NCBI GenBank assembly: GCA_963422265.1
Contig: OY729416.1
Span: 277,681-341,680, forward strand
Length of the DNA: 64,000 nt
Reading direction: 5' to 3'
Source: Thermodesulfobacteriota bacterium
GTDB lineage: Bacteria; Desulfobacterota_D; UBA1144; Nemesobacterales; UBA2774
The notes under the pieces were generated by a model. It searched no databases and was not told where the DNA came from. It was given only the letters and a program-made list of their open reading frames with translations. The translations under genes were made by a program, and so were the position numbers. This document shows, piece after piece, positions 4,191-57,090 of this stretch (positions within the stretch are counted from its first letter, which is position 1; each line of letters begins with the position of its first letter).

Positions 4191-4267
4191 TGGAACTGAG
4201 AGTCAAGTATTATTATAATATTTATTTAGGTATAGGACAATTTGGGTTTTCCTAAGGAGATTAGAGA

Positions 4268-5260: not shown

Positions 5261-5272
5261 ATCTTAAAGGGC

Positions 5273-5707: not shown

Positions 5708-5929
5708 TTTAATTTCCTCCTGTCTAATTTTTTCTTGCTCATAATATAAACTTCTTTGAGGTATTGTCAAGGGTTTTTGTTCGCATCTGCACAATTCAAT
5801 TGTATAATAATTTAAGTAAGTTATGAGATTTTATCAATTTTTCTAAATGCGTATGCTGATTAAAGGGATATCGGCTATAGAAATCCTTGATAAACATTCC
5901 GACTATATATTCACTCAACCGTAACTAGA

Positions 5930-6600: not shown

Positions 6601-6693
6601 AAAGCTAAAAAAGGTCGGAGAGTAGAAGAAGGGGGATCCTACTCCACGTTTCCATAAGTATGTCGGCAAATGACCCTCCAATCTAGCCAATTA

Positions 6694-8100: not shown

Positions 8101-8578
8101 AATTGTGTTACACCTCGCTTGCAATTGAATTTAGAAGTTTTAATTATGCCACAGGGAAGATTTTTTTCTATTTTGTGCTAATATATAATAGCTGTCCAAG
8201 AGTATTGGTTTCTCCAGACCTTAAAGTCTTATAAGAGGATCATTTTAATGGTTGTTGGCGCTGCGGCAGGGACCTTCCCGTTCGGGTGGATAAGGGGTTT
8301 TAGGGAGGACAATTGGCAAATTATCTGGGATCCTAGCAGTAAAGCAGTTTTTGCAAAAGCTGCTGTCTCAAAAGAGGTTGTTCCATTGGGCGAGTGCTCG
8401 ACTTGGCAAGAGGCAAAGGTTTTTGCCGATTCTGCCATAGATGATATTAACGTATTAATAAAAGCTATTTAATCTCCTTGTTGTAGCTTTGAAATCTGTC
8501 GCGGCTTGCCTTTGAGTCTTATGCTTCTCTTTGTAGTTCAATTGTAAAATTTCTATATCAAGTTAGCTTTATCTGCTC

Positions 8579-9511: not shown

Positions 9512-9519
9512 AGACGTAA

Positions 9520-10410: not shown

Positions 10411-10495
10411 CATTATTTTTGATTTCGCTTGCCAACGCTTCTAAACCCTATTATAAAATTACCTTTGATTAAATACTTGCCCGCCGAGGAATTGA

Positions 10496-11785
10496 ATGCC
10501 TGAGCTCAAGATAATTCGTAATTATTCTGGAGTAGCCGATTCGCACACTATTGACTCATATATGTCCAGAGGGGGCTATATGGCTCTTCCTAAGGTGCTT
10601 AAGAATGACCCCGAAGAGGTGATTGAAGAAATAAGAAAGTCAGAGCTAAGGGGGCGGGGTGGGGCGGGTTTTCCTACTGGGATGAAGTGGGGATTTATAC
10701 AGCGAGACTCGAAGAAACCCATATACCTTTGCTGCAATGCGGATGAAAGCGAGCCGGGAAGTTTTAAGGATAGAGAGATAATTGAGCAGGATCCACATCA
10801 GTTATTAGAGGGAATTATTATTGCCTGCTATGCTATAAACTCACGTAAATCTTATATATACATCAGGGGAGAGATGCCTTATGGAGCGTCTATTATTGAG
10901 AATGCTATCAGCGAGGCTTATAACAAAGGTTATCTAGGCAATAATATACTCAACTCGGGGTTCAACCTGGACGTGTCTTTATTCAGAGGCGCAGGGGCAT
11001 ATATATGCGGAGAAGAGACCGGTCTTCTAGAATCTATAGAGGGTAAAAACGGAGAACCTAGACCTAAACCCCCATTCCCCGCGCAGATCGGACTTTTCGG
11101 ATGTCCGACGATTGTTAATAACGTGGAAACTCTTGCCTGCGTTCCTCATGTTATGAATAGGGGGGCGGATTGGTTTTTGGGTATAGGCATGCCTAAGAAT
11201 ACCGGGACTAAAATATACGGCTTGTGCGGGAACGTTCGCAAGCCTGGGCTTTACGAGCTACCTTTAGGAATATCTCTTCGTCGGTTAATTGATGAGTACG
11301 GAGAGGGCGTGCCAAACGGCAGGAAGATCAAAGCGATCTCTCCTGGCGGTTCTTCAGCACCTCTTCTGACTGCCGAGGAGATTGGTATAAGGATGGATTT
11401 TGATTCTCTATCAAAAGTAGGTTCAATGCTCGGAACGGCGGGAGTAACCGTGATGGACGATACTGCCTGCATGGTAAGGGTCGCTCAGAATCTGGCGCAC
11501 TTTTATAGAGACGAGTCTTGCGGTCAGTGCGTTCAGTGTAGAGAGGGAACGTGGTGGCTTGAAAAGATGCTTACGATGATTGAGCAGGGAAAGGGTAGGA
11601 TGGAGTATATAGATACTTTGCTTGATGCCTGCTCTCAAATGAGGGGAACGACTATATGCGCCCTTGCAGATGGTTGCGCTATGCCAGTTGAGTCTATTGT
11701 GAAAAAATTCCGGGGTGAGTTTGAAGATCACGTAAAGCTTGGCAAATGTCCTTTTGAAAGGGCTTCTATGGGTAGCTGGTCTTGA
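10496..11785 (+). CDS. nuoF: NADH dehydrogenase flavoprotein subunit, NuoF/HoxF-like (51-kDa family)
   Basis: GRGGAGFPTGMKW NADH/FMN motif and ESCGQCVQCREGT 4Fe-4S motif. Stands alone, not in a nuo operon. Confidence 0.8.
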   Translation: MPELKIIRNYSGVADSHTIDSYMSRGGYMALPKVLKNDPEEVIEEIRKSELRGRGGAGFPTGMKWGFIQRDSKKPIYLCCNADESEPGSFKDREIIEQDPHQLLEGIIIACYAINSRKSYIYIRGEMPYGASIIENAISEAYNKGYLGNNILNSGFNLDVSLFRGAGAYICGEETGLLESIEGKNGEPRPKPPFPAQIGLFGCPTIVNNVETLACVPHVMNRGADWFLGIGMPKNTGTKIYGLCGNVRKPGLYELPLGISLRRLIDEYGEGVPNGRKIKAISPGGSSAPLLTAEEIGIRMDFDSLSKVGSMLGTAGVTVMDDTACMVRVAQNLAHFYRDESCGQCVQCREGTWWLEKMLTMIEQGKGRMEYIDTLLDACSQMRGTTICALADGCAMPVESIVKKFRGEFEDHVKLGKCPFERASMGSWS

Positions 11786-11839
11786 GTGAACTATTTGTCA
11801 ATTTTGAGTTGTTAAATACTAACAACTGGAAACTATAAG

Positions 11840-12067
11840 CTATTGAGATTTTCCGTTTTTCCCAGAGCTAGCACTTGGGGGTTCGGCATCCTTATCCTGA
11901 ATAGACGTTTGGTCATCCTGGGGTTCATCGTCTTTAAGGGATTTTCTAAAGCCTTTTATCCCCTTTCCTAATGACGAACCTATGTCTCCTAGTCTGCTAG
12001 GCCCAAAAATCAAAAGTAGGATCACCAGTACAATTATAAGTTCCCAAATTCCGAAGCCGCCTATCAT
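11840..12067 (-). CDS. tatA: Twin-arginine translocase subunit TatA/E
   Basis: [42 protein letters not shown]. Confidence 0.85.
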
Positions 12068-12192
12068 TGTGAATACAACCTCATAATGATGTATATTAAC
12101 GATATGCTTAGTTAAAGTCAACTAGCCATATAGGATTCAATTGTGCAAGCTATGATATTACTTGTATAATGTTGTTAGGATGGAAGTGACTT

Positions 12193-25742: not shown

Positions 25743-26220
25743 ATCGTCCCGCTAGTATTGTTTTCAGTAGAACATTATAACTAAGGCTGATGCTATTTTC
25801 ATGTCAGCAAGTGAGGAATTATAGCCAAAGGCTACTCTTACAGAAAGGGTTATTCTCGTAAAATTTAAAATAGAGGCATATAGAGGACTGTAACACAATA
25901 TAGCACCGTTTTTCTTACTTTGAGGATATTTTCAGTGAAAACGCGTTACTCTTAAACAACTGCTTGTGTAAGAAGTAGGATTTTCCTTTGGTTAAGATGA
26001 CAAAAGAGGAATCTAGTTTTTTGTTCTTTTATACATATTTGATTTTTATGGGAGATGTGTTGAATTTAGGGTGGAAGGATGGGGTATGATTTGCTCACTT
26101 TAGTGTGGTAAAACGATGAAAATGATAATGATATGGTGGTGGACCCTTAATGAATGTCAGTCCTTTTGACAAAGGCTTAGGAAGTTATTAAAGTAAAAGG
26201 TATTATGATTATAAAAGTTA

Positions 26221-26242
26221 CCCCCCCCCCCCCCCCCCCCCC
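26221..26242. repeat. Homopolymeric tract C22, 28 nt upstream of the TTG start of the giant adhesin gene
   Basis: 22 consecutive C read directly. A possible TTGACA-17-TAAAGT promoter at 26166-26194 would put the tract in the 5' leader. Confidence 0.9.
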
Positions 26243-26269
26243 GAAATTCCTGTCCGGCAGGACAACGCC

Positions 26270-28495
26270 TTGATACCTCGTCAACACCTGCGGCGCCTCG
26301 CCGCCACCCTCGGCCTGATCTTCTTTATCATCTGTGTCCTGCCGGGCACTGCACAGGCCGCCAAAGGCTTCACATTTTCCAAACACACGCTGACTCTGGC
26401 AGAACCTGGAGGACTCGGAGGACTGTCGAGCACAGACACCTACACCGTGAAACTGAGGGAACAACCGAGCGGGAACGTGACCGTAGCAATTAGGAGCGCA
26501 GATAGTACTCTAGTTACTGTGTCACTGGCCTCCATGACCTTTACCACCAGCAACTGGGACCAACCGCAGGAGGTAACCGTCACCGGTGTGGATGACCAAA
26601 TAGATTATGGCGATCAACAGTCCATTGTCATCCTGCATAGTCCGTCCGGTAGTGGCTACAGTTCCCAGCAGAACACTACTATAGCAGTGCGATATAACGA
26701 CAACGACACCGCCGGTATCACCATCACCGAGACCGGTGGCAGCACCGTCACCACCGAAGCCGGCGGCACCGACACCTTCACGGTCGTGCTGGACACCGAG
26801 CCGTTAGAGGATGTCAGCATCGCCGTATCCAGTTCCGACCCCAGTGAAGGTACGGTTGACAAGAGCAGCTTACGTATTCACCTTCGACAACTGGAATACC
26901 CCGCAGACCGTCACCGTCACCGGTCAGGATGACAACCTGGCCGACGGGGATCAATCCTATAACATCGTACTGGACAAGGTCGTCAGTTTAGATCCTCCCT
27001 ACGGCGGCGATACCCCAGCGAACGCCATAGACCCACCGGACGTGTCGGTGACCAACACCGATGATGACCCCGGCGTCACCTTATCCAAGAGAAGTGTCAC
27101 CGTCACCGAAGCCAGTGGCCGGGCGCACCACCACCTACACCGTAGTGCTCAACACCCGGCCGAGTAGTAGCGTCACCGTCACCCCCACCAGCAGCGATAC
27201 CAGCGTGGCCAGAGTCTCCCCGGGACCCCTGACGTTTACTTCATCCGACTGGAATACCCCACAGAGGGTCACCGTCACCGGTATCGATGACAGCACCGTT
27301 GCGGATAGAAGCACCACCATCACCCATGCAGCCTCTGGCGGCGGCTACAACGCAGTGAGCATCGCCGACGTGTCGGTAAAGCTGACCGATGACGACACCA
27401 GCTTCACATTTTCCACATCCAGTCTGTCTCTGGCAGAAACTGCTGGACTCGGAGGACTGTCGAACACAGGCAGCTACACCGTGAAACTGAATGGAGCACC
27501 AAATGCGGACGTGACCGTAACAGTCCGTAATAATTTCCCTGATGAAATCACCGTCTCCCCGGCCTCCCTGACCTTTACCACCAGCGACTGGAATACCGCC
27601 GCAAGGGTCACCGTCACCGTCTTGGATAACCAGGTCGATAATGGCGATCAACGTACCATTCTTGTCTGGCATTTGCCGTCCGGTGGTGGCTACGGTTCTC
27701 AGCAGAACACTAATATAACAGTGCTATATAACGACAACGACACCGCCGGCGTCACCGTCACCGAGACCGGTGGCAGCACTGCCACCACCGAAGCCGGCGG
27801 CACCGACACCTTCACGGTCGTGCTGAACACCAAGCCGTTAGAGGGTGTCAGAATCGCCGTATCCAGTTCCGACATCAGTGAAGGTACGGTTGACAAGAGC
27901 AGCCTGGTCTTCACCGATTCCAACTGGGATACGGTACAGACCGTCACCGTCACCGGTCAGGATGACAGCCTGGTTGACGGGGATCGAGCCTATAACATCG
28001 TACTGGCCAAGGTCGTCAGCACTGATACCAACTACCACGGCATTGACCCAGCGGACGTATCGGTGACCAACACCGATGATGACGCCGGCGTCACCGTTAT
28101 CCAAGATGCAGTGTCACCGTCACCGAAGCCAGTGGCAACAGTAATACCACCACCTACACTGTCGTACTGGACGCCCAACCCTCGGGCGAAGTCACCGTCA
28201 CCCTCACCAGCGGCGATACCAGCGTGGCCAGAGTCTCCCCGGCCTCCCTGACCTTTACCACCAGCGACTGGAATACCGCACAGCAAGTCACCGTCACCGG
28301 TATCGATGACAGCACCGTTGCGGATAGAAGCACCACCATCACCCATGCAGCCTCTGGCGGCAGCTACAACGCAGTGGTCATTCCCAGTGTCGTGTCACCC
28401 TGACCGATGACGACACCAGCTTCACATTTTCCACATCCAGTCTGTCTCTGGCAGAAGGTGGACTCGGAGGACGGCCGAACACAGGCAGCTACACC
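26270..28495 (+). pseudogene. 5' portion of the giant adhesin gene (signal peptide plus Ig/Calx-like beta-sandwich domains), split across three overlapping ORFs by frameshifts
   Basis: ORFs 26270..26932, 26811..27167 and 27061..28251 encode contiguous homologous domains in different frames. Signal peptide MIPRQHLRRLAATLGLIFFIICVLPGTAQA. 27400-28410 is near-identical to the in-frame copy at 28410-29420 apart from indels such as the one at ~28105. Confidence 0.55.
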
Positions 28496-31400
28496 GTGAA
28501 ACTGAATGGAGCACCAAATGCGGACGTGACCGTAACAGTCCGTAATAATTTCCCTGATGAAATCACCGTCTCCCCGGCCTCCCTGACCTTTACCACCAGC
28601 GACTGGAATACCCCGCAGAGGGTCACCGTCACCGTCTTGGATAACCAGGTCGATAATGGCGATCAACGTACCATTCTTGTCTGGCATTTGCCGACCGGTG
28701 GTGGCTACGGTTCTCAGCAGAACACTAATATAACAGTGCAATATAACGACAACGACACCGCCGGCGTCACCGTCACCGAGACCGGTGACAGCACTGCCAC
28801 CACCGAAGCCGGCGGCACCGACACCTTCACGGTCGTGCTGAACACCGAGCCGTTAGAGGGTGTCAGAATCGCCGTATCCAGTTCCGACATCAGTGAAGGT
28901 ACGGTTGACAAGAGCAGCCTGACCTTCACCGCAGCCAACTGGGATACGGTACAGACCGTCACCGTCACCGGTCAGGATGACAGCCTGGTTGACGGGGATC
29001 GAGCCTATAACATCGTACTGGCCAAGGTCGTCAGCACTGATACCAACTACCACGGCATTGACCCAGCGGACGTATCGGTGACCAACACCGATGATGACGC
29101 CGGCGTTACGTTATCCAAGAGCAGTGTCACCGTCACCGAAGCCAGTGGCAACAGTAATACCAACACCTACACTGTAGTACTGGACGCCCAACCCTCGGGC
29201 ACCGTCACCGTCACCCTCACCAGCGGCGATACCAGCGTGGCCAGAGTCTCCCCGGCCTCCCTGACCTTTACCACCAGCGACTGGAATACCGCACAGCAAG
29301 TCACCGTCACTGGGGTGGACGACAGCACCGATGAGGACCGCAGCACCACCATCACCCATACAATCAGTGGTGGGGGATACGGCTCAGTGAGCATAGCCGA
29401 CGTCGCCGTCACCCTGACCGATGACGATACCGCCCGCGTCACGCCGCCGAGCAAGCCCACCGGACTCGAGGCAGTGGGGGGCGACAGTCAGGTGACGTTG
29501 ACCTGGAATAATCCGAATAACGCCGCCATCACCGGGTATCAGATCAGGCAGCGGAGTTATGTCAACGGGGCATGGACTAAATTTCCTAAATTTTCTAACA
29601 TAATACCGGGCAGTGATGCCAGCACCACTAGCCACGTGGTGAGTGGTCTGACCAACGGCGTGAGGTATAGTTTCCAAATCCGTGAGATGGTGGGCAAAAA
29701 GGGAGGGAAACCGTCTGAGGCCAAAGCGACACCGGCGGCCCCGCCACCGCCGAAACCGAGCAAGCCCACCGGCCTCAGGACAGTAGCAGGGAACAATCAG
29801 GCGACGTTGATCTGGAATAATCCGAATAACGCCGCCATCACCAAGTATCAGTATAAGCAGTGGAATTCATCGTCTACCGAGAGCGGCGCGAAGTGGGCTG
29901 ACATACCGGGCAGTGATGCGAACACCACCAGCTACGTGGTGAGTGGTCTGACCAACACCTCTGTTATCTATAGATTCCGCATCCGTGCGGTGGCAGGCCC
30001 CTCTGTCGGGCTTCAGTCCAGCTCTGCCGGTGCGATCATTGCGGTACCGCCTGCTGCGCCTGTCGTGACGGCGACGCCGGGCGACGCTCAGGTGAGGTTA
30101 AGTTGGTCGGGGAGCATAGGCTATTATATCACCAGGTATCAGATCAAGCAGTGGACGGGCAGTAGCGAGCCGGCCAATGGCTGGAAGGACATTCCCGGGA
30201 GTCGATCGAGCACCACCAGCCACGTGGTTAGGGGTCTGACCAGCGGCGTGAGTTACAGTTTCCGCATCCGTGCGGTGGCAACATGTAGTTTTAATTCTGG
30301 GAGATTCATAGCTTCTGATTGCAGCGTTGCGGGGACGCCGTCCACTCCCGTCAGTCCGACGCTTGTGCCGGGCAAGCCTGTCGTGGCGCCAATGCCGGGC
30401 GACGCTCAGGTGACGTTGAGTTGGAGTAATCCGAATGATGTTGCCATCACCAAGTATCAGATCAAGCAGTGGACTGGCAGTAGCGAGAGTGGGAGCTGGA
30501 CTGACATATCGGGGAGTGGATCGAGCACCACCAGCCATGTGGTGAGTGGCCTGACCAGCGGCGTGAGGTATAGTTTCCGTATTCGTGCGGTGGCAGGTAC
30601 CAATGTTGCAGGGACGCCGTCCGATCCCGTCAGGGCAGTACTCCTGGACAAGCCTGTCGTCAGTGCCAGTGCGGGCGACACTCTGGTGACGTTGAGTTGG
30701 AGTGATCCGAATGACGATTCCATCACCAGGTATCAGATCAAGCAGTGGACTGGCAGTAGCGAGAGAGGGCGTTGGACTGACATATCGGGGAGTGGATCGA
30801 GCACCACCAGCCTCGTGGTGGGGCGCCTGACCAACGGCGTGAGGTATAGTTTCCGTATCCGTGCAATGGTGGGTCTTTTCCCGGGGGTGGAGTCAGCTTC
30901 CGTCAGTTCGACGCCTGTGCCGGGCAAGCCTGCCGTGACGGCGACGCCGGGCACCGCTCAGGTGACGTTAAGCTGGAGTAATCCGAATGATGCTTCCATC
31001 GCCAGGTATCAGATCAAGCAGTGGACTGGCAGTAGCGAGAGTGGGAGTTGGACTGACATATCGGGGAGTGGGGAGGACACCACCAGCCACGTGGTGAGGG
31101 GTCTGACCAACGGCGTTGAGTATAGTTTCCGTATCCGTGCGGTGACAGGTACCAACGCTTCAGGGACGCCGTCCGATCCCGTCAGTGAGACGCCAGCGGT
31201 ACAGCCGGACAAGCCTGCTGTTACAGCGGCGCCGGCGGGCGACAGTCTGGTGAGGTTGAGTTGGAGTAATCCGAATGACGCTTCCATCACCGGGTATCAG
31301 ATCAAGCGGTGGACTGGCAGTAGCGAGAGTGGGAGTTGGACTGACATATCGGGGAGTGGGAAGGACACGATCACATACACGGTACCGGGTCTGACCAACG

Positions 31401-34400
31401 GCGTTGAGTATAGTTTCCGTATCCGTGCGATGGCAGGTCGTGTTCCAGGGATGGAGTCGGATGTCGCCAGCGCGACGCCTGTGGCAGACAAGCCTATCGT
31501 TACGGCGACGCCGGGCAACGCTCTGGTGACGTTAAGCTGGAGTAATCCGAATGACGCTTCTATCACCGGGTATCAGATCAAGCAGTGGACTGGCAGTAGC
31601 GAGAGTGGGAGTTGGACTGACATATCGGGGAGTGGGGAGGACACCATCAGCCACGTGGTGAGTGGTCTGACCAACGGCGCCAGGTATGGTTTCCGTATCC
31701 GTGCGATGGTAGGCGCTGTTACAAGGACGCCGTCCGATCCCGTCAGTGCGACGCCTGTGTCGCCGCCTGTCGGACTCACGGCGACGCCGGGAGACTCTCA
31801 GGTGACGTTGACCTGGAATAATCCGAACAATCCCACCATCACCGGGTATCAGCTCAAAAAGTATCGTTTCACGATTGAGACCGGTTTTAACGAGGGTTCT
31901 TGGACTGACATACCAGGGAGTGGAAAGGACACCACCAGCTACGTGGTAACGAGTCTGACCAACGGCGCCAGGTATGGTTTCGAGATTCGTGCGGTGGTAG
32001 GCAGTGTTACAGGAGAGGAGTCCGAGTTCGTGCCCGTCACCCTGAGCAGCATCTTCACCATTACCGGGACGGTGACCCAGGGAGAGACACTGACCGCGGA
32101 TACCAGCACGATCTCCGACCCCGACGGCCCGAAGAGTCTGACGTTCACCTACCAATGGAAGCGCGGCGGGACTGCCATAGGCGGTGCCACCGGCCGCACC
32201 TACGTTCTGACGCAGGCCGACGTCGGGAAGGCTATCACCGTCATCGTGAGCTGGACCAATGCTCGTGGGACATTAAAGTCTCTCACCTCGACTGCGACTG
32301 CGAACGTGGCGAACGTGAATGAATCACCAACCGGGGCCGTTACCATCACCGGCACCGCCACCAGGGGACAGACGTTGACTGCGGATACCAGCACGATCGT
32401 CGACCCGGACGGCCCTGCCCGTCTGACGTTCACCTATCAATGGAATCGCGGCGGGACTGCCATAGGCGGTGCCACCGGCCGCACCTACGTTCTGACGCCG
32501 GCCGACGTCGGGAAGGCCATCAGCGTCACCGTGAGCTGGACCGATGCTGGCAGCACCGCGGAGTCATTCATCTCTGCTGCTACCACGAGTGTAACAAACA
32601 CCAACCAATCACCGACCGGGGCCGTCGCCATCACCGGCACCGCCACCCAGAAGCAGACACTGACCGCGGTTACCAGCACGATCGTCGACCCGGACGGCCC
32701 CAGCAGTCTAACGTTCAGCTACCAGTGGAACCGCGATGGGTCTGCCATCAGCAGTGCCACCGGCAGCACCTACGTGCTGACGCAAGCCGACGTCGGGGCC
32801 AAGATCACCGTCACCGTGAGCTGGACCGATGCTGGCAGCACCGCGGAGTCGTTCAACTCTGCTGCGACGGCGAAGGTGGCGAACGTGAATGACCTGCCGA
32901 CCGGGGCCGTCACCATCACCGGCACCGTCACCCAGAAGCAGACGTTGACCGCGGTGACCAGCACGATCTCCGACCCGGACGGCCCGAGTAATTTGGTTTT
33001 TAGCTATCAATGGAAGCGAGATGGGAATAACATCAGCAGCGCCACCGGCCGCACCTACGTTCTGACGCAGGCTGACGTCGGGAAGGCCATCATCGTCACC
33101 GTGAGCTGGACCGATGCTTATGGGGCATCAGAGTCTCTCACCTCTGCTGCGACAGCGAAGGTGGTGAACGTGAACGACCGGCCGACCGGGGCCGTCACCA
33201 TCACCGGCACCCCCATCCAGGGACAGATACTGACCGCGGACACCTCCGGCATTTCCGACCCGGACGTCCCTGACACTGACAGTCTGACCTTTACCTACCA
33301 GTGGACGCGTGGCCCGGATACTGTCAGCCGCACCAGCACTTACACCCTGACGCAGGCTGACGTCGGGGAGATCATCACCGTAGTCGTGGCTTATCAAGAT
33401 GGTGGGCGTAGGCAGCTTTTCCTTGCTAGAACTCCAAAGGTAGCGAACCTAAACGACGCACCGACCGGGGCCGTTACCATCACCGGCACCCCCACCCAGG
33501 GAGAGACACTGACCGCGGTGACCAGCACGATCTCCGACCCGGATGGCCCGAGTGATTTGGTGTTCAGCTACCAGTGGAAGCGCGATAGGATTGCCATCAG
33601 CAGCGCCACCGGCAGCACCTACACCCTGACGCAAGCCGACGTCGGGAAGGCCATCAGCGTCATTGTGAGCTGGACCGATGCTGGCAGCACCGCGGAGACC
33701 CTCACCTCTGTTGCTACCGCGAGTGTAACCAACATAAACGACTCACCGACCGGCAGCGTCACCATCACCGGCACCGTGACCCAGGGCCAGACACTGACCG
33801 CAGACACCTCCGGCATCTCCGACCCCGACGGCCCCGCCAGTCTGACCTTCAGCTACCAATGGAAACGCGATGGGTCTGACATCAGCAGTGCCACCAGTAG
33901 AACCTACATTCTGACGCAAGCCGACGTCGGGAAGGCCATCAGCGTCACCGTCAGCTGGACCGATGCCGGCAGCATCGTGGAGACCCTCACCTCTGCTGCG
34001 ACAGCGAACGTAGCGAACCTAAACGACTCGCCGACCGGTAGCGTCACCATCAGCGGCACGGTGACCCAGGGCCAGACCCTGACCGCAGTGACCAGCACGA
34101 TCGTCGACCCGGACGGCCCGGCCAGTCTGACCTTCAGCTACCAATGGAAACGCGATAGCACTGACATCAGCAGTGCCACCAGTAGAACCTACATTCTGAC
34201 GCAAGCCGACGTCGGGAAGGCCATCACCGTCATCGTGAGTTGGACCGATGCCGGCAGCATCGTGGAGACCCTTACCTCGACTGCGACAGCGAAGGTGGCG
34301 AACATGAATGACCCGCCGACCGGGGCTGTCACCATCAGCGGCACCGTGACCCAGGGCCAGACCCTGACCGCGGTGACCAGCACGATCGTCGACCCCGACG

Positions 34401-37400
34401 GCCCCAGCAGTCTAACCTTCACCTACCAATGGAACCGTGGCGGGAATCCCATCAGCAGCGCCACCGGCAGCACCTACACCCTGACACAAGCCGACGTCGG
34501 TAAGGCCATCAGCGTCATTGTGAGCTGGACCGATGCTGGCAGCACCGCGGAGACCCTCACCTCGGCGGCGACAGCGAACGTAACCAACGCGAACGATCCG
34601 CCGACCGGGGCTGTCACCATCAGCGGCACCGTGACCCAGGGCCAGACACTGACCGCAGACACCTCCGGCATCTCCGACCCCGACGGCCCCAGCAATCTGA
34701 CGTTCACCTACCAATGGAAGCGCGATGGGTCTGACATCAGCAGTGCCACCAGTAGAACCTACATTCTGACGCAAGCCGACGTCGGGAAGGCTATCACCGT
34801 CATCGTGAGTTGGACCGATGCCGGCAGCATCGTGGAGACCCTCACCTCTGCTGCGACAGCGAACGTAGCGAACCTAAACGACTCGCCGACCGGTAGCGTC
34901 ACCATCAGCGGCACGGTGACCCAGGGCCAGACCCTGACCGCAGTGACCAGCACGATCGTCGACCCGGACGGCCCGGCCAGTCTGACCTTCAGCTACCAAT
35001 GGAAACGCGATAGCACTGACATCAGCAGTGCCACCAGTAGAACCTACATTCTGACGCAAGCCGACGTCGGGAAGGCTATCACCGTCATCGTGAGTTGGAC
35101 CGATGCCGGCAGCATCGTGGAGACCCTTACCTCGACTGCGACAGCGAAGGTGGCGAACATGAATGACCCGCCGACCGGGGCTGTCACCATCAGCGGCACC
35201 GTGACCCAGGGCCAGACCCTGACCGCGGTGACCAGCACGATCGTCGACCCCGACGGCCCCAGCAGTCTAACCTTCACCTACCAATGGAACCGTGGCGGGA
35301 ATCCCATCAGCAGCGCCACCGGCAGCACCTACACCCTGACACAAGCCGACGTCGGTAAGGCCATCAGCGTCACCGTGAGTTGGACCGATGCCGGCAGCAT
35401 CGTGGAGACCCTCACCTCGGCGGCGACAGCGAACGTAACCAACGCGAACGATCCGCCGACCGGGGCGGTCACCATCACCGGCACCGTGACCCAGGGCCAG
35501 ACACTGACCGCGGATACCAGCACGATAGTTGACCCGGACGGCCCGGCCAGTCTGACCTTCAGCTACCAATGGAAACGCGATAGCACTGACATCAGCAGTG
35601 CCACCAGTAGAACCTACATTCTGACGCAAGCCGACGTCGGGAAGGCTATCACCGTCATCGTGAGTTGGACCGATGCCGGCAGCATCGTGGAGACCCTCAC
35701 CTCTGCTGCGACAGCGAACGTAGCGAACCTAAACGACTCGCCGACCGGTAGCGTCACCATCAGCGGCACGGTGACCCAGGGCCAGACCCTGACCGCAGTG
35801 ACCAGCACGATCGTCGACCCGGACGGCCCGGCCAGTCTGACCTTCAGCTACCAATGGAAACGCGATAGCACTGACATCAGCAGTGCCACCAGTAGAACCT
35901 ACATTCTGACGCAAGCCGACGTCGGGAAGGCTATCACCGTCATCGTGAGTTGGACCGATGCCGGCAGCATCGTGGAGACCCTTACCTCGACTGCGACAGC
36001 GAAGGTGGCGAACATGAATGACCCGCCGACCGGGGCTGTCACCATCAGCGGCACCGTGACCCAGGGCCAGACCCTGACCGCGGTGACCAGCACGATCGTC
36101 GACCCCGACGGCCCCAGCAGTCTAACCTTCACCTACCAATGGAACCGTGGCGGGAATCCCATCAGCAGCGCCACCGGCAGCACCTACACCCTGACACAAG
36201 CCGACGTCGGTAAGGCCATCAGCGTCACCGTGAGTTGGACCGATGCCGGCAGCATCGTGGAGACCCTCACCTCGGCGGCGACAGCGAACGTAACCAACGC
36301 GAACGATCCGCCGACCGGGGCGGTCACCATCACCGGCACCGTGACCCAGGGCCAGACACTGACCGCGGATACCAGCACGATAGTTGACCCGGACGGCCCG
36401 GCCAGTCTGACCTTCAGCTACCAATGGAAACGCGATAGCACTGACATCAGCAGTGCCACCAGTAGAACCTACATTCTGACGCAAGCCGACGTCGGGAAGG
36501 CTATCACCGTCATCGTGAGTTGGACCGATGCCGGCAGCATCGTGGAGACCCTTACCTCGACTGCGACAGCGAAGGTGGCGAACATGAATGACCCGCCGAC
36601 CGGGGCTGTCACCATCAGCGGCACCGTGACCCAGGGCCAGACCCTGACCGCAGACACCTCCGGCATCTCCGACCCCGACGGCCCCAGCAATCTGACGTTC
36701 ACCTACCAATGGAACCGTGGCGGGAATCCCATCAGCAGCGCCACCGGCAGCACCTACACCCTGACACAAGCCGACGTCGGTAAGGCCATCAGCGTCACCG
36801 TGAGTTGGACCGATGCCGGCAGCATCGTGGAGACCCTCACCTCGGCGGCGACAGCGAACGTAACCAACGCGAACGATCCGCCGACCGGGGCGGTCACCAT
36901 CACCGGCACCGTGACCCAGGGCCAGACACTGACCGCGGATACCAGCACGATAGTTGACCCGGACGGCCCGGCCAGTCTGACCTTCAGCTACCAATGGAAA
37001 CGCGATAGCACTGACATCAGCAGTGCCACCAGTAGAACCTACATTCTGACGCAAGCCGACGTCGGGGCGGCCATCAGCGTCGCCGTCAGCTGGACCGATG
37101 CCGGCAGCATCGTGGAGACCCTCACCTCTGATGCGACAGCGAACGTAGCGAACCTAAACGACTCGCCGACCGGTAGCGTCACCATCAGCGGCACGGTGAC
37201 CCAGGGCCAGACCCTGACCGCAGTGACCAGCACGATCGTCGACCCGGACGGCCCGGCCAGTCTGACCTTCAGCTACCAATGGAAACGCGATAGCACTGAC
37301 ATCAGCAGTGCCACCAGTAGAACCTACATTCTGACGCAAGCCGACGTCGGGGCGGCCATCAGCGTCGCCGTCAGCTGGACCGATGCCGGCAGCATCGTGG

Positions 37401-39310
37401 AGACCCTTACCTCGACTGCGACAGCGAAGGTGGCGAACATGAATGACCCGCCGACCGGGGCTGTCACCATCAGCGGCACCGTGACCCAGGGCCAGACCCT
37501 GACCGCGGTGACCAGCACGATCGTCGACCCCGACGGCCCCAGCAGTCTAACCTTCACCTACCAATGGAACCGTGGCGGGAATCCCATCAGCAGCGCCACC
37601 GGCAGCACCTACACCCTGACACAAGCCGACGTCGGTAAGGCCATCAGCGTCACCGTGAGTTGGACCGATGCCGGCAGCATCGTGGAGACCCTCACCTCGG
37701 CGGCGACAGCGAACGTAACCAACGCGAACGATCCGCCGACCGGGGCGGTCACCATCACCGGCACCGTGACCCAGGGCCAGACACTGACCGCAGACACCTC
37801 CGGCATCTCCGACCCCGACGGCCCCAGCAATCTGACGTTCACCTACCAATGGAAGCGCGATGGGTCTGACATCAGCAGTGCCACCAGTAGAACCTACGTT
37901 CTGACGCAGGCCGACGTCGGGAAGGCCATCAGCGTCATTGTGAGCTGGACCGATGCTGGCAGCACCGCGGAGACCCTCACCTCTGCTGCGACAGCGAACG
38001 TAACCAACGCGAACGATCCGCCGACCGGGGCTGTCACCATCACCGGCACCGTGACCCAGGGCCAGACACTGACCGCGGATACCAGCACGATAGTTGACCC
38101 CGACGGCCCCGCCAATCTGACGTTCACCTACCAATGGAAGCGCGATGGGTCTGACATCAGCAGTGCCACCAGTAGAACCTACGTTCTGACGCAGGCCGAC
38201 GTCGGGAAGGCCATCAGCGTCATTGTGAGCTGGACCGATGCTGGCAGCACCGTGGAGACCCTCACCTCTGCTGCGACAGCGAACGTAACCAACGCGAACG
38301 ATCCGCCGACCGGCAGCGTCACCATCAGCGGCACCGTGACCCAGGGCCAGACCCTGACCGCGGATACCAGCACGATAGTTGACCCCGACGGCCCCGCCAG
38401 TCTGACGTTCACCTACCAATGGAAGCGCGATGGGTCTGACATCAGCAGTGCCACCAGTAGAACCTACATTCTGACGCAAGCCGACGTCGGGAAGGCTATC
38501 ACCGTCATCGTGAGCTGGACCGATGCCGGCAGCATCGTGGAGACCCTTACCTCGGCGGCGACAGCGAAGGTGGTGAACGTGAACGACCCGCCGACCGGCA
38601 GCGTCACCATCACCGGCACCGTGACCCAGGGCCAGACACTGACCGCGGATACCAGCACGATAGTTGACCCCGACGGCCCCGCCAGTCTGACGTTCACCTA
38701 CCAATGGAAGCGCGATGGGTCTGACATCAGCAGTGCCACCAGTAGAACCTACGTTCTGACGCAGGCCGACGTCGGGAAGGCCATCAGCGTCATTGTGAGC
38801 TGGACCGATGCTGGCAGCACCGTGGAGACCCTCACCTCTGCTGCGACAGCGAACGTAACCAACGCGAACGATCCGCCGACCGGCAGCGTCACCATCAGCG
38901 GCACCGTGACCCAGGGCCAGACCCTGACCGCGGATACCAGCACGATAGTTGACCCCGACGGCCCCGCCAATCTGACGTTCACCTACCAATGGAAGCGCGA
39001 TGGGTCTGACATCAGCAGTGCCACCAGTAGAACCTACGTTCTGACGCAGGCCGACGTCGGGAAGGCCATCAGCGTCATTGTGAGCTGGACCGATGCTGGC
39101 AGCACCGTGGAGACCCTCACCTCTGCTGCGACAGCGAACGTAACCAACGCGAACGATCCGCCGACCGGCAGCGTCACCATCAGCGGCACCGTGACCCAGG
39201 GCCAGACCCTGACCGCGGATACCAGCACGATAGTTGACCCCGACGGCCCCGCCAGTCTGACGACCTACCAATGGAAGCGCGATGGGTCTGACATCAGCTG
39301 CCACCAGTAG
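28496..39310 (+). CDS. Giant repetitive surface adhesin-like protein, main 3604-aa ORF: beta-sandwich domains, 11 fibronectin type III domains, then about 25 tandem 95-aa repeats
   Basis: Continuous 10.8-kb ORF. FN3 consensus P..L.A..GD.QVTLSW..PND..ITGYQIKQW......W.DI.GS...TTS..V.GLTNGV.YSFRIRAV. 95-aa unit PTGAVTITGTVTQGQTLTADTS.I.DPDGP..LTF.YQWKR.G..ISSAT..TY.LTQADVGK.I.V.VSWTD.GS..E.L.S.AT..V.N.ND. Confidence 0.8.
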   Translation: MKLNGAPNADVTVTVRNNFPDEITVSPASLTFTTSDWNTPQRVTVTVLDNQVDNGDQRTILVWHLPTGGGYGSQQNTNITVQYNDNDTAGVTVTETGDSTATTEAGGTDTFTVVLNTEPLEGVRIAVSSSDISEGTVDKSSLTFTAANWDTVQTVTVTGQDDSLVDGDRAYNIVLAKVVSTDTNYHGIDPADVSVTNTDDDAGVTLSKSSVTVTEASGNSNTNTYTVVLDAQPSGTVTVTLTSGDTSVARVSPASLTFTTSDWNTAQQVTVTGVDDSTDEDRSTTITHTISGGGYGSVSIADVAVTLTDDDTARVTPPSKPTGLEAVGGDSQVTLTWNNPNNAAITGYQIRQRSYVNGAWTKFPKFSNIIPGSDASTTSHVVSGLTNGVRYSFQIREMVGKKGGKPSEAKATPAAPPPPKPSKPTGLRTVAGNNQATLIWNNPNNAAITKYQYKQWNSSSTESGAKWADIPGSDANTTSYVVSGLTNTSVIYRFRIRAVAGPSVGLQSSSAGAIIAVPPAAPVVTATPGDAQVRLSWSGSIGYYITRYQIKQWTGSSEPANGWKDIPGSRSSTTSHVVRGLTSGVSYSFRIRAVATCSFNSGRFIASDCSVAGTPSTPVSPTLVPGKPVVAPMPGDAQVTLSWSNPNDVAITKYQIKQWTGSSESGSWTDISGSGSSTTSHVVSGLTSGVRYSFRIRAVAGTNVAGTPSDPVRAVLLDKPVVSASAGDTLVTLSWSDPNDDSITRYQIKQWTGSSERGRWTDISGSGSSTTSLVVGRLTNGVRYSFRIRAMVGLFPGVESASVSSTPVPGKPAVTATPGTAQVTLSWSNPNDASIARYQIKQWTGSSESGSWTDISGSGEDTTSHVVRGLTNGVEYSFRIRAVTGTNASGTPSDPVSETPAVQPDKPAVTAAPAGDSLVRLSWSNPNDASITGYQIKRWTGSSESGSWTDISGSGKDTITYTVPGLTNGVEYSFRIRAMAGRVPGMESDVASATPVADKPIVTATPGNALVTLSWSNPNDASITGYQIKQWTGSSESGSWTDISGSGEDTISHVVSGLTNGARYGFRIRAMVGAVTRTPSDPVSATPVSPPVGLTATPGDSQVTLTWNNPNNPTITGYQLKKYRFTIETGFNEGSWTDIPGSGKDTTSYVVTSLTNGARYGFEIRAVVGSVTGEESEFVPVTLSSIFTITGTVTQGETLTADTSTISDPDGPKSLTFTYQWKRGGTAIGGATGRTYVLTQADVGKAITVIVSWTNARGTLKSLTSTATANVANVNESPTGAVTITGTATRGQTLTADTSTIVDPDGPARLTFTYQWNRGGTAIGGATGRTYVLTPADVGKAISVTVSWTDAGSTAESFISAATTSVTNTNQSPTGAVAITGTATQKQTLTAVTSTIVDPDGPSSLTFSYQWNRDGSAISSATGSTYVLTQADVGAKITVTVSWTDAGSTAESFNSAATAKVANVNDLPTGAVTITGTVTQKQTLTAVTSTISDPDGPSNLVFSYQWKRDGNNISSATGRTYVLTQADVGKAIIVTVSWTDAYGASESLTSAATAKVVNVNDRPTGAVTITGTPIQGQILTADTSGISDPDVPDTDSLTFTYQWTRGPDTVSRTSTYTLTQADVGEIITVVVAYQDGGRRQLFLARTPKVANLNDAPTGAVTITGTPTQGETLTAVTSTISDPDGPSDLVFSYQWKRDRIAISSATGSTYTLTQADVGKAISVIVSWTDAGSTAETLTSVATASVTNINDSPTGSVTITGTVTQGQTLTADTSGISDPDGPASLTFSYQWKRDGSDISSATSRTYILTQADVGKAISVTVSWTDAGSIVETLTSAATANVANLNDSPTGSVTISGTVTQGQTLTAVTSTIVDPDGPASLTFSYQWKRDSTDISSATSRTYILTQADVGKAITVIVSWTDAGSIVETLTSTATAKVANMNDPPTGAVTISGTVTQGQTLTAVTSTIVDPDGPSSLTFTYQWNRGGNPISSATGSTYTLTQADVGKAISVIVSWTDAGSTAETLTSAATANVTNANDPPTGAVTISGTVTQGQTLTADTSGISDPDGPSNLTFTYQWKRDGSDISSATSRTYILTQADVGKAITVIVSWTDAGSIVETLTSAATANVANLNDSPTGSVTISGTVTQGQTLTAVTSTIVDPDGPASLTFSYQWKRDSTDISSATSRTYILTQADVGKAITVIVSWTDAGSIVETLTSTATAKVANMNDPPTGAVTISGTVTQGQTLTAVTSTIVDPDGPSSLTFTYQWNRGGNPISSATGSTYTLTQADVGKAISVTVSWTDAGSIVETLTSAATANVTNANDPPTGAVTITGTVTQGQTLTADTSTIVDPDGPASLTFSYQWKRDSTDISSATSRTYILTQADVGKAITVIVSWTDAGSIVETLTSAATANVANLNDSPTGSVTISGTVTQGQTLTAVTSTIVDPDGPASLTFSYQWKRDSTDISSATSRTYILTQADVGKAITVIVSWTDAGSIVETLTSTATAKVANMNDPPTGAVTISGTVTQGQTLTAVTSTIVDPDGPSSLTFTYQWNRGGNPISSATGSTYTLTQADVGKAISVTVSWTDAGSIVETLTSAATANVTNANDPPTGAVTITGTVTQGQTLTADTSTIVDPDGPASLTFSYQWKRDSTDISSATSRTYILTQADVGKAITVIVSWTDAGSIVETLTSTATAKVANMNDPPTGAVTISGTVTQGQTLTADTSGISDPDGPSNLTFTYQWNRGGNPISSATGSTYTLTQADVGKAISVTVSWTDAGSIVETLTSAATANVTNANDPPTGAVTITGTVTQGQTLTADTSTIVDPDGPASLTFSYQWKRDSTDISSATSRTYILTQADVGAAISVAVSWTDAGSIVETLTSDATANVANLNDSPTGSVTISGTVTQGQTLTAVTSTIVDPDGPASLTFSYQWKRDSTDISSATSRTYILTQADVGAAISVAVSWTDAGSIVETLTSTATAKVANMNDPPTGAVTISGTVTQGQTLTAVTSTIVDPDGPSSLTFTYQWNRGGNPISSATGSTYTLTQADVGKAISVTVSWTDAGSIVETLTSAATANVTNANDPPTGAVTITGTVTQGQTLTADTSGISDPDGPSNLTFTYQWKRDGSDISSATSRTYVLTQADVGKAISVIVSWTDAGSTAETLTSAATANVTNANDPPTGAVTITGTVTQGQTLTADTSTIVDPDGPANLTFTYQWKRDGSDISSATSRTYVLTQADVGKAISVIVSWTDAGSTVETLTSAATANVTNANDPPTGSVTISGTVTQGQTLTADTSTIVDPDGPASLTFTYQWKRDGSDISSATSRTYILTQADVGKAITVIVSWTDAGSIVETLTSAATAKVVNVNDPPTGSVTITGTVTQGQTLTADTSTIVDPDGPASLTFTYQWKRDGSDISSATSRTYVLTQADVGKAISVIVSWTDAGSTVETLTSAATANVTNANDPPTGSVTISGTVTQGQTLTADTSTIVDPDGPANLTFTYQWKRDGSDISSATSRTYVLTQADVGKAISVIVSWTDAGSTVETLTSAATANVTNANDPPTGSVTISGTVTQGQTLTADTSTIVDPDGPASLTTYQWKRDGSDISCHQ
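29440..32040 (+). repeat. Array of 11 FN3-domain-coding repeats, about 270-290 bp each, moderately diverged
   Basis: Periodic protein motif in the 28496..39310 ORF. Confidence 0.75.
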
Positions 39311-40140
39311 AACCTACATTCTGACGCAAGCCGACGTCGGGAAGGCTATCACCGTCATCGTGAGCCGCATCGTGGAGACCCTTACCTCGGCGGCGACCGA
39401 AGGTGGTGAACGGAACGACCCGCGACCGGCAGCGTCACCATCACCGGGTGACCCAGGGCCAGACACTGACGGATACCAGCACGATAGTTGACCCCGACGG
39501 CCCCGCCAGTCTGACGTTCACCTACCAATGGAAGCGCGATGGGTCTGACATCAGCAGTGCCACCAGTAGAACCTACGTTCTGACGCAGGCCGACGTCGGG
39601 AAGGCCATCAGCGTCATTGTGAGCTGGACCGATGCTGGCAGCACCGCGGAGACCCTCACCTCTGCTGCGACAGCGAACGTAACCAACGCGAACGATCCGC
39701 CGACCGGGGCTGTCACCATCACCGGCACCGTGACCCAGCAATCTGACGTTCAGCTACCAATGGAAGCGCGATGGGTCTGACATCAGCAGTGCCACCAGTA
39801 GAACCTACGTTCTGACGCAGGCCGACGTCGGGAAGGCCATCAGCGTCATTGTGAGCTGGACCGATGACCGCGGAGACCCTCACCTCTGATGCGACAGCGA
39901 ACGTAACCAACGCGATCCGCCGACCGGGGCGGTCACCATCACCGGCACCGTGACCCAGGGCCAGACACTGACACCTCCGGCATCTCCGACCCCGACGGCC
40001 CCAGCAATCTGACGTTCAGCTACCAATGGAAGCGCGATGGGTCTGACATCAGCAGTGCCACCAGTAGAACCTACGTTCTGACGCAGGCCGACGTCGGGAA
40101 GGCCATCACCGTCACCGTCAGCTGGACCGACAGCGGCGGT
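32040..40140 (+). repeat. Tandem 285-bp (95-aa) repeat array A, about 28 units including 855-bp higher-order repeats that are near-identical at the DNA level
   Basis: Antisense ORFs recur at exact 285- and 855-bp spacing (e.g. 33904, 34759, 35614). Long stretches (33961-34250 versus 34816-35105) are identical. Confidence 0.85.
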
Positions 40141-40254
40141 ACCGCGGAGACCCTCACCTCTGCGGCTACTTCGGTCGCCGGCGTCACGTTATCCACGAGA
40201 GCGGTCACCGTCACCGAAGCCAGTGGCAGCAGTAATACCAACACCTACACCGTA
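39230..40254 (+). pseudogene. Degenerate or collapsed segment of repeat array A: several short ORFs in different frames. Relative to neighbouring copies it differs by many 1-17 nt deletions and almost no substitutions.
   Basis: E.g. cagacactgacacctccggc versus canonical cagacactgaccgcagacacctccggc; tgagccgcatcgtggagaccc versus tgagctggaccgatgccggcagcatcgtggagaccc. Confidence 0.5.
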
Positions 40255-43200
40255 GTGCTCGACACCCAACCCTCGGGCAACGTCACCGTCACGCCCACCA
40301 GCGGCGATAGCGACGTGGCGACCGTATCCCCGGTCTCCCTGACGTTTACCACGAGCAACTGGAGTACGGCACAGATCGTCACCGTCACCGGTGTGGACGA
40401 CAGCAGCGATGGTGATAGAAGTACCACCATCACCCATGCAGCCTCTGGTGGTGGCTACGACTCAGTGGTCATTGCCAGCGTCAGTGTAACGCTGACCGAT
40501 GACGACACCGCCGGTGTCACCGTGTCCGAGAGCGGTGTCACGGTAACCGAAGCCAGTGGCAGCAGTAATACCAACACCTACACCGTAGTACTCAACACCC
40601 GGCCGAGTGGCAACGTCACCGTCACGCCGACCAGCGGCGATACCAATGTGGCGACCGTATCTGGGGCCCTGACCTTTACCACCAGCAACTGGAGTACGGC
40701 ACAGTCCATCACCGTCACCGGTGTGGACGACAGCAGCGATGGTGATAGAAGCACCACCATCACCCATGCAGCCTCTGGCGGCGGCTACAACGCAGTGGTC
40801 ATCTCCGACGTAGCGGTAACGCTGACCGATGACGACACCGCCGGTGTCACCGTGTCCGAGAGCAGCGTCACGGTAACCGAAGCCAGTGGCAGCAGTAATA
40901 CCAACACCTACACCGTAAAACTTAACACCCGGCCGAGTGGCACCGTCACCGTCACGCCCACCAGCGGCGATAGCGACGTGGCGACCGTATCCCCGGTCTC
41001 CCTGACGTTTACCACGAGCAACTGGGGTACGGCACAGTCCATCACCGTCACCGGTGTGGACGACAGCAGCGATGGGGATAGAAGCACCACCATCACCCAT
41101 GCAGCCTCTGGCGGCGGCTACAACGCAGTGGTCATCTCCGACGTAGCGGTAACGCTGACCGATGACGATAACAACTCGCCGACGGGTTCGGTAACCATTA
41201 CTGGGGCGGCGACGCAGGGGCAGAGGCTTACGGCAGATACCAGCACGATCGTTGATCCAGACGGTCCGAGTAATCTGACGTTCAGCTATCAATGGAAGCG
41301 GGGCGGGACTGACATCAGCGGGGCGACCAGTAGCACCTACGTTCTAACACAGGCGGACGTCGGTTCTATGATCACAGTAGTAGTGAGTTGGACGGACAGC
41401 GGTAGTACAGTGGAATCTCTGACCTCTGCTGCTACAGCAAGTGTAGCGAACTTAAACGACTTGCCGACTGGTGCAGTAACCATTACGGGGACGGTGACGC
41501 AGGGGCAGACACTGACCGCGGATACCGGCACGATTGTTGACCCAGACGGTCCGAGTAATCTGACGTTCAGCTATCAATGGAAGCGGGGTGGGACTGATAT
41601 CAACGGGGCGACCAGTAGCACCTACGTTCTGACACAGGCGGACGTAGGTTCTGTGATCACAGTAGTAGTGAGTTGGACGGACGCTGGTGGGGCATCGGAA
41701 TCCCTCACCTCTGCTGCTACAGCAAGTGTGGCAAACACCAACAACTTGCCGACTGGTGCAGTAACCATTACTGGGACGGTGACGCAGGGGCAGACGCTTA
41801 CGGCGGATACCGGCACGATCGTTGATCCAGACGGTCCGAGTAGTCTGACGTTCAGCTATCAGTGGAAGCGAGGTGGGACTGATATCAGCGGGGCGACCAG
41901 TAGCACCTACGTTCTGACACAGGCGGACGTCGGTTCTGTGATCACAGTAGTAGTGAGTTGGACGGACAGCGGTAGTACAGTGGAGACTCTTACCTCTGCT
42001 GCTACAGCAAGTGTAGCGAACGTAAACGACTTGCCGACTGGTGCGGTAACCATCACCGGGACGGCGACCCAGGGCCAGACACTGACCGCGGATACCAGCA
42101 CGATTGTTGACCCAGACGGTCCGAGTAATCTGACGTTCAGCTATCAGTGGAAGCGAGGTGGGACTGACATCAGCGGGGCGACCAGTAGCACCTACGTTCT
42201 GACACAGGCGGACGTCGGTTCTGTGATCACAGTAGTAGTGAGTTGGACGGACAGCGGTAGTACAGTGGAGACTCTTACCTCTGCTGCTACAGCAAGTGTA
42301 GCGAACGTAAACGACTCGCCGACTGGTGCAGTCACCATCACCGGCACGGCGACCCAGGGCCAGACACTGACCGCGGATACCAGCACGATCGTTGATCCAG
42401 ACGGCCCGAGTAATCTGACGTTCAGCTATCAATGGAAGCGAGGTGGGACTGACATCAGCGGCGGCGCCAGTAGCACCTACGTTCTGACACAGGCGGACGT
42501 CGGGGCGGCAATCACCGTCACTGTGAGCTGGACTGACGCTGGTGGGGCATCGGAATCTCTTACCTCTGCTGCTACAGCAAGTGTAGCGAACGTAAACGAC
42601 TTGCCGACTGGTGCGGTAACCATTACGGGGACGGCAACCCAGGGGCAGACACTGACCGCGGATACCAGCACGATTGTTGACCCAGACGGTCCGAGTAATC
42701 TGACGTTCAGCTATCAATGGAAGCGGGGTGGGACTGACATCAGCGGGGCGACCAGTAGCACCTACATTCTGACACAGGCGGACGTCGGTTCTGTGATCAC
42801 AGTAGTAGTGAGTTGGACGGACGCTGGTGGGACATCGGAATCCCTCACCTCTGCTGCTACAGCAAGTGTAGCGAACGTAAACGACTTGCCGACTGGTGCG
42901 GTAACCATTACGGGGACGGCAACCCAGGGGCAGACGCTTACAGCGGATACCGGCACGATCGTTGATCCAGACGGTCCGAGCAGTCTGACGTTCAGCTATC
43001 AATGGAAGCGAGGCGGGACTGATATCAACGGGGCGACCAGTAGCACCTACATTATGACACAGGCGGACGTCGGTTCTGTGATCACAGTAGTAGTGAGTTG
43101 GACGGACAGCGGTAGTACAGTGGAATCTCTGACCTCTGCTGCTACAGCAAGTGTAGCGAACGTAAACGACTCGCCGACTGGTGCGGTAACCATTACGGGG

Positions 43201-57013: not shown

Positions 57014-57090
<77 letters not shown>

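Follow-up and report, generated by a model that had tools for sequence, protein, structure and literature searches.

The 64,000-nucleotide stretch of contig OY729416.1 from a Thermodesulfobacteriota bacterium (assembly GCA_963422265.1, positions 277,681 to 341,680, forward strand), hereafter the window, carries a giant gene for an adhesin-like surface protein on its + strand (26270–45618), and within this gene 29 units of 285 bp form a tandem array of immunoglobulin (Ig)-like domains (array 1, 32047–40172, + strand). We consider it quite probable that the near-identical repeats of this array are the homogenised core of a tandem Ig-unit array in a giant secreted, probably outer-membrane-anchored adhesin, shaped by repeated recombination. 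The 29 units were delimited with an nhmmer nucleotide profile, and Tandem Repeats Finder (TRF) reported a 285-bp period with 27.1 copies at 32055–39738. Each unit encodes a 95-residue Ig-like domain of the AIR9 A9 type, with PF23197 (IG_AIR9) scoring 98.3 bits (E = 2.2e-28) at 34601–36310, above the gathering cut-off of 27.5. The nearest solved structures to the three units at 34601–35455, as found by a PDB sequence search, are phage Ig-like tail or decoration proteins, namely 9ncf_S (E = 2e-10) and Hoc (5vf3_Z).

Array 1 consists of four successive parts, all in the + orientation. Units 1–6 (32047–33745) make up an old edge, as seen in the unit difference matrix and the joint alignment, differing pairwise at 52–94 positions per 285 bp, with one unit of 279 bp. 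The homogenised core comprises units 7–20 (33746–37735), outlined by self-identity, the difference matrix and exact tracts, and its unit types follow the order (A B C) three times, A C, and A B C, which amounts to an 855-bp higher-order repeat. Units 21–25 (37736–39160; types D′ D E D D, from the difference matrix and exact tracts) are 3–24 differences apart, with E D D forming a second 855-bp block, and units 26–29 (39161–40172), resolved by alignment and frameshift mapping, are a damaged E D D followed by D′. Self-identity within 33700–37550 was 0.934 at a shift of 855 bp, 0.911 at 1425 bp, 0.876 at 570 bp and 0.860 at 285 bp, so that identity at the multi-unit shift of 855 bp exceeds that at the single-unit shift, as expected of a higher-order repeat. 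The three-unit period of 855 bp is real.

Exact repetition at the DNA level was observed over long tracts. The longest is 967 bp (34731–35697 = 35586–36552, shift 855 bp, no mismatches), and other exact tracts, ranging from 266 to 416 bp, occur at shifts of 1, 2, 3, 5, 6, 8 and 11 units, with one of 339 bp linking 38069–38407 to 38924–39262. Whole units are also 100% identical, namely those at 35171, 36026 and 37451, and those at 34886 and 35741, with the unit at 34031 one base off the latter pair. The 967-bp duplicated tract contains no differences, synonymous sites included, whereas all unit pairs summed hold 1840 synonymous and 1998 non-synonymous differences, with an overall ratio of non-synonymous to synonymous polymorphism (pN/pS) of 0.36. 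Since synonymous sites are identical in the 967-bp tract and diverged in other pairs, recency or ongoing conversion is indicated, and not protein constraint. That unit identity is held by selection on the protein, the units encoding a conserved Ig-like domain, is therefore highly improbable, for such selection leaves synonymous sites free. The units are in addition mosaics of a few cassettes (AVTSTIVD, ADTSGISD or ADTSTIVD, and KRDSTD, NRGGNP or KRDGSD), such as the unit at 36596, which combines a type A 5′ cassette with a type C 3′ cassette. Mosaic units and the many registers of the exact tracts would fit repeated exchanges with breakpoints inside units, and not a single event.

Species-representative genomes were scanned with the conserved C-terminal domain of the gene, and 78 loci (L002–L079) were obtained. 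One of them, L006, from the Nitrospirales metagenome-assembled genome (MAG) OY729426.1, holds a homologous gene with the same architecture as that of the window. When units of the window were aligned jointly with those of L006 and a further locus, L005, the nearest neighbour lay within the own array for all 19 core units and all eight units of a second Ig array downstream (array 2), and five of the six edge units (32047–33745) were nearest to units of L006 or L005, not to window units. Identity in the core of array 1 reaches 100% internally versus about 81% to L006, the units thus being closer within the array than to positional homologues in the other genome. A homogenised centre with orthologous edges is the textbook signature of concerted evolution, and these alignments support that interpretation. 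The original prediction had proposed near-identical higher-order repeats at 33700–37550, stretches of more than 280 bp identical between 855-bp units, recent amplification and concerted evolution; each of these proposals was borne out, the exact tracts being even longer than claimed.

The comparison with related genomes that had been recommended there was also carried out, and unit numbers differ strongly. Window positions 29697–32583, which cover fibronectin type III (FN3) domains and the first two Ig units, are collinear with L006 1–2904 at 90.5% DNA identity (blastn), yet L006 has two Ig units at this place versus 29 in the window. In the Ig array adjoining the predicted C-terminal barrel the numbers are 18 in L006 and eight in the window, and paralogues in the genome of L006 carry 1, 2, 5 and 20 Ig units. 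L006 also contains a 284-bp exact tract at a shift of 285 bp; an independent assembly thus shows the process as well. The reading frame of L006 changes within the FN3 region (111–1142 / 1052–12181) and is otherwise open for 11 kb.

With hundreds of identical bases in common, neighbouring units could misalign, leading to homologous recombination or gene conversion between sister chromosomes; slippage during replication would be a further route, and the exact tracts of 285–967 bp would be ample substrates for all three. Such events would repeatedly duplicate, delete and overwrite between one and 11 units at a time, and the variety of registers in which the exact tracts fall shows that the copied blocks were of several sizes. 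The latest events would have copied blocks of three units (A B C, and E D D), giving rise to the 855-bp period and the 967-bp exact tract, and the centre of the array would be kept uniform as its edges drift, with the unit number changing fast on an evolutionary scale. By analogy with other adhesins, the unit number may determine how far the distal FN3 and Calx-like part extends from the C-terminal anchor. We infer that recombination of this kind operates, that the units serve as a length-setting stalk and that cells at present are heterogeneous; copy-number variation between cells or strains, which the original prediction considered likely, is an expectation.

The pattern of array 1 resembles that of eukaryotic satellite higher-order repeats such as alpha satellite, in which likeness is greater between multi-unit blocks than between neighbouring units and the array is homogenised in its middle and divergent towards its edges; array 1, however, is coding, in frame, only 8 kb long and located on a bacterial chromosome. 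Among bacterial surface proteins, alpha C and Rib of group B Streptococcus, Bap and Esp are tandem-repeat proteins whose repeat number varies through recombination. They share with the window gene long near-identical in-frame DNA repeats in a surface-protein gene and a unit number that changes by recombination or slippage, but their variation was measured within populations and that of the window gene only between homologues in different genomes. Repeats in general have been reviewed (PMC3899988).

The giant gene is about 19.3 kb long and would encode about 6450 aa if read through; its extent rests on ORF lists, sense-frame Pfam domains and frameshift mapping. As assembled, it is divided into six open reading frames (ORFs) on the + strand, 26270–26932, 26811–27167, 27061–28251, 28496–39310, 39403–39780 and 40255–45618, the largest being 28496–39310 (3604 aa) and 40255–45618 (1787 aa). 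The translations of the six ORFs continue each other's domain series, so that they are fragments of one gene, which contains a signal peptide, Calx-like domains, nine FN3 domains, 29 and eight Ig units and a predicted outer-membrane beta-barrel. A plausible Sec-type signal peptide was recognised by eye in the translation of the N-terminus (26270–26366, + strand; MIPRQHLRRLAATLGLIFFIICVLPGTAQA, then AKG), with a basic n-region, a hydrophobic core and AQA. It is followed by three copies of a higher-order repeat of 1015–1034 bp (26367–29431, + strand; 26367–27400, 27401–28418 and 28419–29431), delimited by blastn self-comparison and alignment, with three Calx-beta-like domains, each about 110 aa long, encoded per copy. 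The earlier claim of a 1010-bp repeat at 27400–29420 thus stands as to its existence, but there are three copies and not two, the period is 1015–1034 bp and the repeat starts at 26367. Its reading as a sign of recent amplification fails, for the copies are only 88% identical between neighbours and 80% in the outer pair, and the 5′ repeat of about 1 kb is therefore old, neither near-identical nor recent. PF03160 (Calx-beta) scored 17.4 bits (E = 0.0045) in these domains, short of the gathering cut-off of 27, and the domains of this repeat and of the 330-bp repeats described below can be called only Calx-like by sequence.

Downstream of the 5′ repeat, about nine FN3 domains (29432–32046, + strand; Pfam fn3, TRF and blastn) show a 276-bp period and are about 79% identical to each other, with TRF reporting a 276-bp array at 30332–31857 and PF00041 (fn3) matching nine stretches of 28496–32101 with 260.4 bits (E = 7.7e-79), above the gathering cut-off of 25. 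Behind array 1 lie three 330-bp repeats (40176–41168, + strand) of about 90% identity, found by TRF (40196–41168) and blastn, which are 78–85% identical to the third domain of the 5′ 1-kb repeat (blastn). Array 2 follows with eight units of 285 bp (41170–43450, + strand; TRF, nhmmer and Pfam), of which TRF counted 7.9 copies at 41170–43421 and the nucleotide profile eight units at 41179–43450; PF23197 matched seven stretches of it with 126.9 bits (E = 2.8e-37; cut-off 27.5). Its units have a mean identity of 89% among themselves and of only 74% to array 1, and it has no higher-order period, with an identity of 0.90 at shifts of 285, 570 and 855 bp alike (41170–43421). The giant gene is flanked by housekeeping genes, with infB, pnp, miaA and ccm-type genes on one side and a short-chain dehydrogenase/reductase (SDR) gene, apbC and nuoM on the other. 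The only RNA gene recovered by Rfam and tRNA scans of the window is a tRNA-Met (CAT) at 57014–57090.

The unique C-terminal region (43451–45618, + strand), assessed with Pfam, AlphaFold, Foldseek and GC content at third codon positions (GC3), consists of a He_PIG-like Ig domain and a predicted outer-membrane beta-barrel. When the last 738 aa were scanned against Pfam, only Autotransporter (PF03797; 25.0 bits, E = 1.9e-5, cut-off 26) and He_PIG (23.2 bits, cut-off 24) were recorded, both just below their cut-offs, and neither RTX nonapeptide repeats (HemolysinCabind) nor a type I secretion signal was found; several relatives carry a precomputed PF03797 match. Modelled with AlphaFold on an alignment of 23 sequences, the last 439 aa form an all-beta barrel with about 18 strands (predicted local distance difference test 78), which Foldseek placed among outer-membrane barrels, with TonB-dependent receptors, LptD and autotransporter beta-domains ranking similarly; matches to the beta-domains of BrkA, Hbp and EspP had TM-scores of 0.54–0.61, normalised to target length. 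On this modelling, the gene probably encodes an adhesin-like protein anchored in the outer membrane.

Known giant proteins share parts of this layout. In type Va autotransporters, an N-terminal signal peptide (here putative), a long passenger and a C-terminal beta-barrel (here predicted, with the BrkA, Hbp and EspP matches) are combined in the same way, but the window protein falls short of the Pfam cut-off, has about 18 modelled strands and not 12, and carries a passenger of Ig and FN3 beads in place of a beta-helix. With giant repeat adhesins (RTX adhesins such as MpIBP, LapA and SiiE; PMC7493085), the window gene shares a very large secreted protein made up mostly of tandem Ig-like or beta-sandwich domains of about 100 aa, near-identical DNA repeats, and domains that are thought to project the binding region off the cell; tandem beta-sandwich domains act as extenders in giant adhesins (PMC7493085). 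Unlike RTX adhesins, the window protein ends in a predicted outer-membrane beta-barrel, with no RTX or type I secretion C-terminus in the scanned 738 aa, and its repeat is of the AIR9 A9 type and not BIg.

Several observations weigh against the favoured explanation. The barrel scores below the Autotransporter cut-off (25.0 versus 26) and is modelled with about 18 strands and not 12, and the mode of anchoring is therefore tentative. Moreover, the assembled gene is not intact. Five frameshifting indels of 1–2 bp in the 5′ repeats, near 26873, 27120, 28095, 28108 and 28409, split its N-terminal part into three overlapping ORFs, and the block 39161–39915 is a copy of 38306–39160 with six mismatches in 754 bp (99.2% identity), about 13 deletions of 1–53 bp and one insertion. 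Another deletion, of 7 bp, is located near 39972 and brings the number of deletions in 39262–39972 to about 14, of which two are multiples of three and none falls in a homopolymer. The damage breaks the frame, with a stop at 39310 and the frame of the 3′ ORF reopening at 39907, and the candidate signal peptide is separated by frameshifts from the beta-barrel. The damage spans about one 855-bp period at the 3′ end of the array and begins exactly where the 339-bp exact match ends. The gene of the array may thus be dead, or the consensus may be unreliable exactly at the damage.

The possibility that the gene is a recently inactivated pseudogene, with repeat dynamics that are real but neutral and with indels that represent genuine decay, is doubtful, though it deserves to be taken seriously. 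At least 19 frame-breaking indels were counted altogether, and the share of damaged-block deletions that are multiples of three (2 of 14) is that expected without selection, which would be consistent with very recent damage in a dead gene. Against this, ORFs of 10.8 kb and 5.4 kb are still fully open and pN/pS among the units is 0.36. In addition, a single 0.8-kb block holds 14 deletions against six substitutions and the adjoining 5.4 kb of core units holds none, unlike the usual spread of decay. The excess of deletions over substitutions in the block 39161–39915 is not normal decay.

Marked steps in base composition were observed along the giant gene. Its GC3 ranges from 0.65 to 0.84 at 26.3–41.2 kb, from 0.57 to 0.64 in array 2 and from 0.35 to 0.51 in the C-terminal region, which is the same as the host genome, with flanking genes at 0.41–0.48. 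At the 5′ side, composition switches from 0.34 to 0.58 within 26100–26300, at the gene start and in unique sequence. A foreign-looking passenger on a native-looking anchor suggests that the passenger was laterally acquired and joined to a resident anchor, a reading based on the GC3 steps together with the 82–90% identity of its DNA to a gene from another phylum. The nearest named relatives of the polynucleotide phosphorylase (PNPase) encoded in the window are from Candidatus Dadabacteria and Thermodesulfobacteriota MAGs, with about 77% identity. GC-biased gene conversion is unlikely to account for the high GC3 by itself, because array 2 is homogenised (89–95%) but has a GC3 of 0.6; it is further disfavoured by the non-homogenised FN3 and 5′ domains, whose GC3 is 0.65–0.72. 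A chimeric misassembly of two organisms was likewise judged unlikely, given that the 5′ switch is located at the start of the gene, where the sequence is unique.

Attachment proteins with FN3 and cadherin domains have been reported to undergo lateral transfer among sponge-associated bacteria (PMC8163846), and the composition steps and the 90% cross-phylum DNA identity would fit this published transfer. Like the window gene, the sponge-associated proteins are FN3-rich surface proteins, and the C-terminal family of the window gene spans several phyla, with 90.5% DNA identity across phyla. An association of the organism of the window with sponges would be inferred from the taxa of its relatives only. 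The 90.5% identity of the FN3 part stands against about 50% amino-acid identity shared by the C-terminal domains of the window and L006 genes, which suggests modular exchange across phyla. In a more specific version, rather unlikely in our judgement, the gene would be a recent cross-phylum chimera, in which a passenger of about 15 kb, 82–90% identical in DNA to the Nitrospirales MAG gene, was placed on a native anchor of Dadabacteria type and expanded from a few to 29 units, with the damaged block as the footprint of an 855-bp-block polymorphism. If true, this would mean exchange of adhesin modules between phyla among co-resident symbionts together with live copy-number variation at one locus.

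The C-terminal barrel family (window 44299–45615) is multi-copy, with at least six members in OY729426.1 and more than ten in OY282373.1, and is common to MAGs of Nitrospirales, Binatia, Latescibacterota, Vicinamibacterales, Spirochaetia, Alphaproteobacteria and Gammaproteobacteria; the C-terminal domain family also occurs in a protein of 'Candidatus Spongiihabitans'. The protein search did not recover the C-terminal protein of the window itself. The protein P0001, located on the same 1,783,595-bp contig as P0037 and P0157, is 83–89% identical in the C-terminal region and carries FN3 and Calx-like domains directly upstream of it in place of Ig units, and it seems to be a second family member encoded elsewhere in the same genome. 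No orthologues of the flank proteins were present in L002–L079, and the loci of SDR homologues of 83–87% identity (L087 and L088) had neither a giant gene nor shared neighbours and are therefore uninformative on the array. No record matched the SDR and ResA-like flank proteins, P0001 or P0037 in exact look-ups, a metagenome protein scan gave nothing, and a metagenome DNA scan with a repeat 20-mer gave seven single, unrelated matches.

A further reading, which we consider unlikely, is an assembly or consensus artefact, in which the array exists but the number of 855-bp blocks and the damaged block result from assembly and polishing of a near-identical tandem repeat, possibly in a population of mixed copy number. 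The damaged block, with its 99.2% identity to the preceding one alongside about 13 deletions and an insertion, its extent of about one higher-order period at the 3′ array end and its start exactly at the end of the 339-bp match, speaks for such an artefact, as does the intact appearance of the flanking housekeeping ORFs. The block could then be a consensus artefact from reads with n and n + 3 units, itself pointing to copy-number heterogeneity. On the other hand, the exact tracts occur in seven registers with internal breakpoints, which simple mis-traversal of a loop would not produce; the 5′ boundary between foreign and native composition falls in unique sequence; the homologue in an independent assembly has the same kind of array and the 284-bp exact tract; and the deletions lie outside homopolymers, with the five 5′ frameshifts in copies that are only 88% identical. 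The PNPase and SDR proteins of the window are 100% identical to proteins on the single 1,783,595-bp contig mentioned above, and this placement suggests a long-read assembly. The earlier statement that an assembler cannot resolve the array is correct for short reads, given exact repeats of up to 967 bp, but not for reads longer than the 8.1-kb array.

The periodic antisense ORFs had first drawn attention to the array. Those over array 1 (34412–34774, 35267–35629, 36122–37054 and 37547–39304, within 34412–39304, − strand) lie in the antisense frame whose codons are in register with those of the sense frame; a stop there requires TTA, CTA or TCA in the sense strand, codons that are rare over the array, where the sense gene has a GC3 of 0.81. 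The frame is nearly open, with stops at 34412, 35267, 36122 and 37547 and at 34019, 34874, 35729 and 37154, located at unit offset 96 (type C units) and 273 (the last full codon before type B units), and zero stops from 37547 to 39314. The stops are spaced by 855, 855 and then 1425 bp because the order of unit types fixes where the rare codons fall; the predicted 855-bp spacing was hence recovered, but the '570 then 285' was not, although exact DNA tracts at shifts of 570 and 285 bp do exist. No Pfam family scored above threshold in the array antisense ORFs, and the alignment of frames identifies them as shadows of the sense gene and not as genes. That they are real overlapping genes, open as they are for 120–585 aa, has next to no likelihood, since their frame is the reverse complement of sense codons in which stop-giving triplets are rare, the sense frame scores 98–260 bits in Pfam where they have no family above threshold, and their translations are of low complexity and rich in Arg, Gly and Ala.

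For annotation, it follows that gene calls on the periodic antisense ORFs should be avoided, and that the unit count and the sequence of 39262–39972 should be treated as provisional. The locus is a new example of a familiar class, the tandem-repeat adhesins, whose recombination-driven behaviour is well known, and it introduces no new element or principle. It does offer a clean case, in a bacterium, of a coding higher-order repeat whose centre is homogenised and whose edges drift. The number of Ig units has shifted about ten-fold (29 versus 2, and 8 versus 18) relative to a homologue with adjoining sequence only about 10% diverged, and the reach of the surface protein would have shifted along with it.

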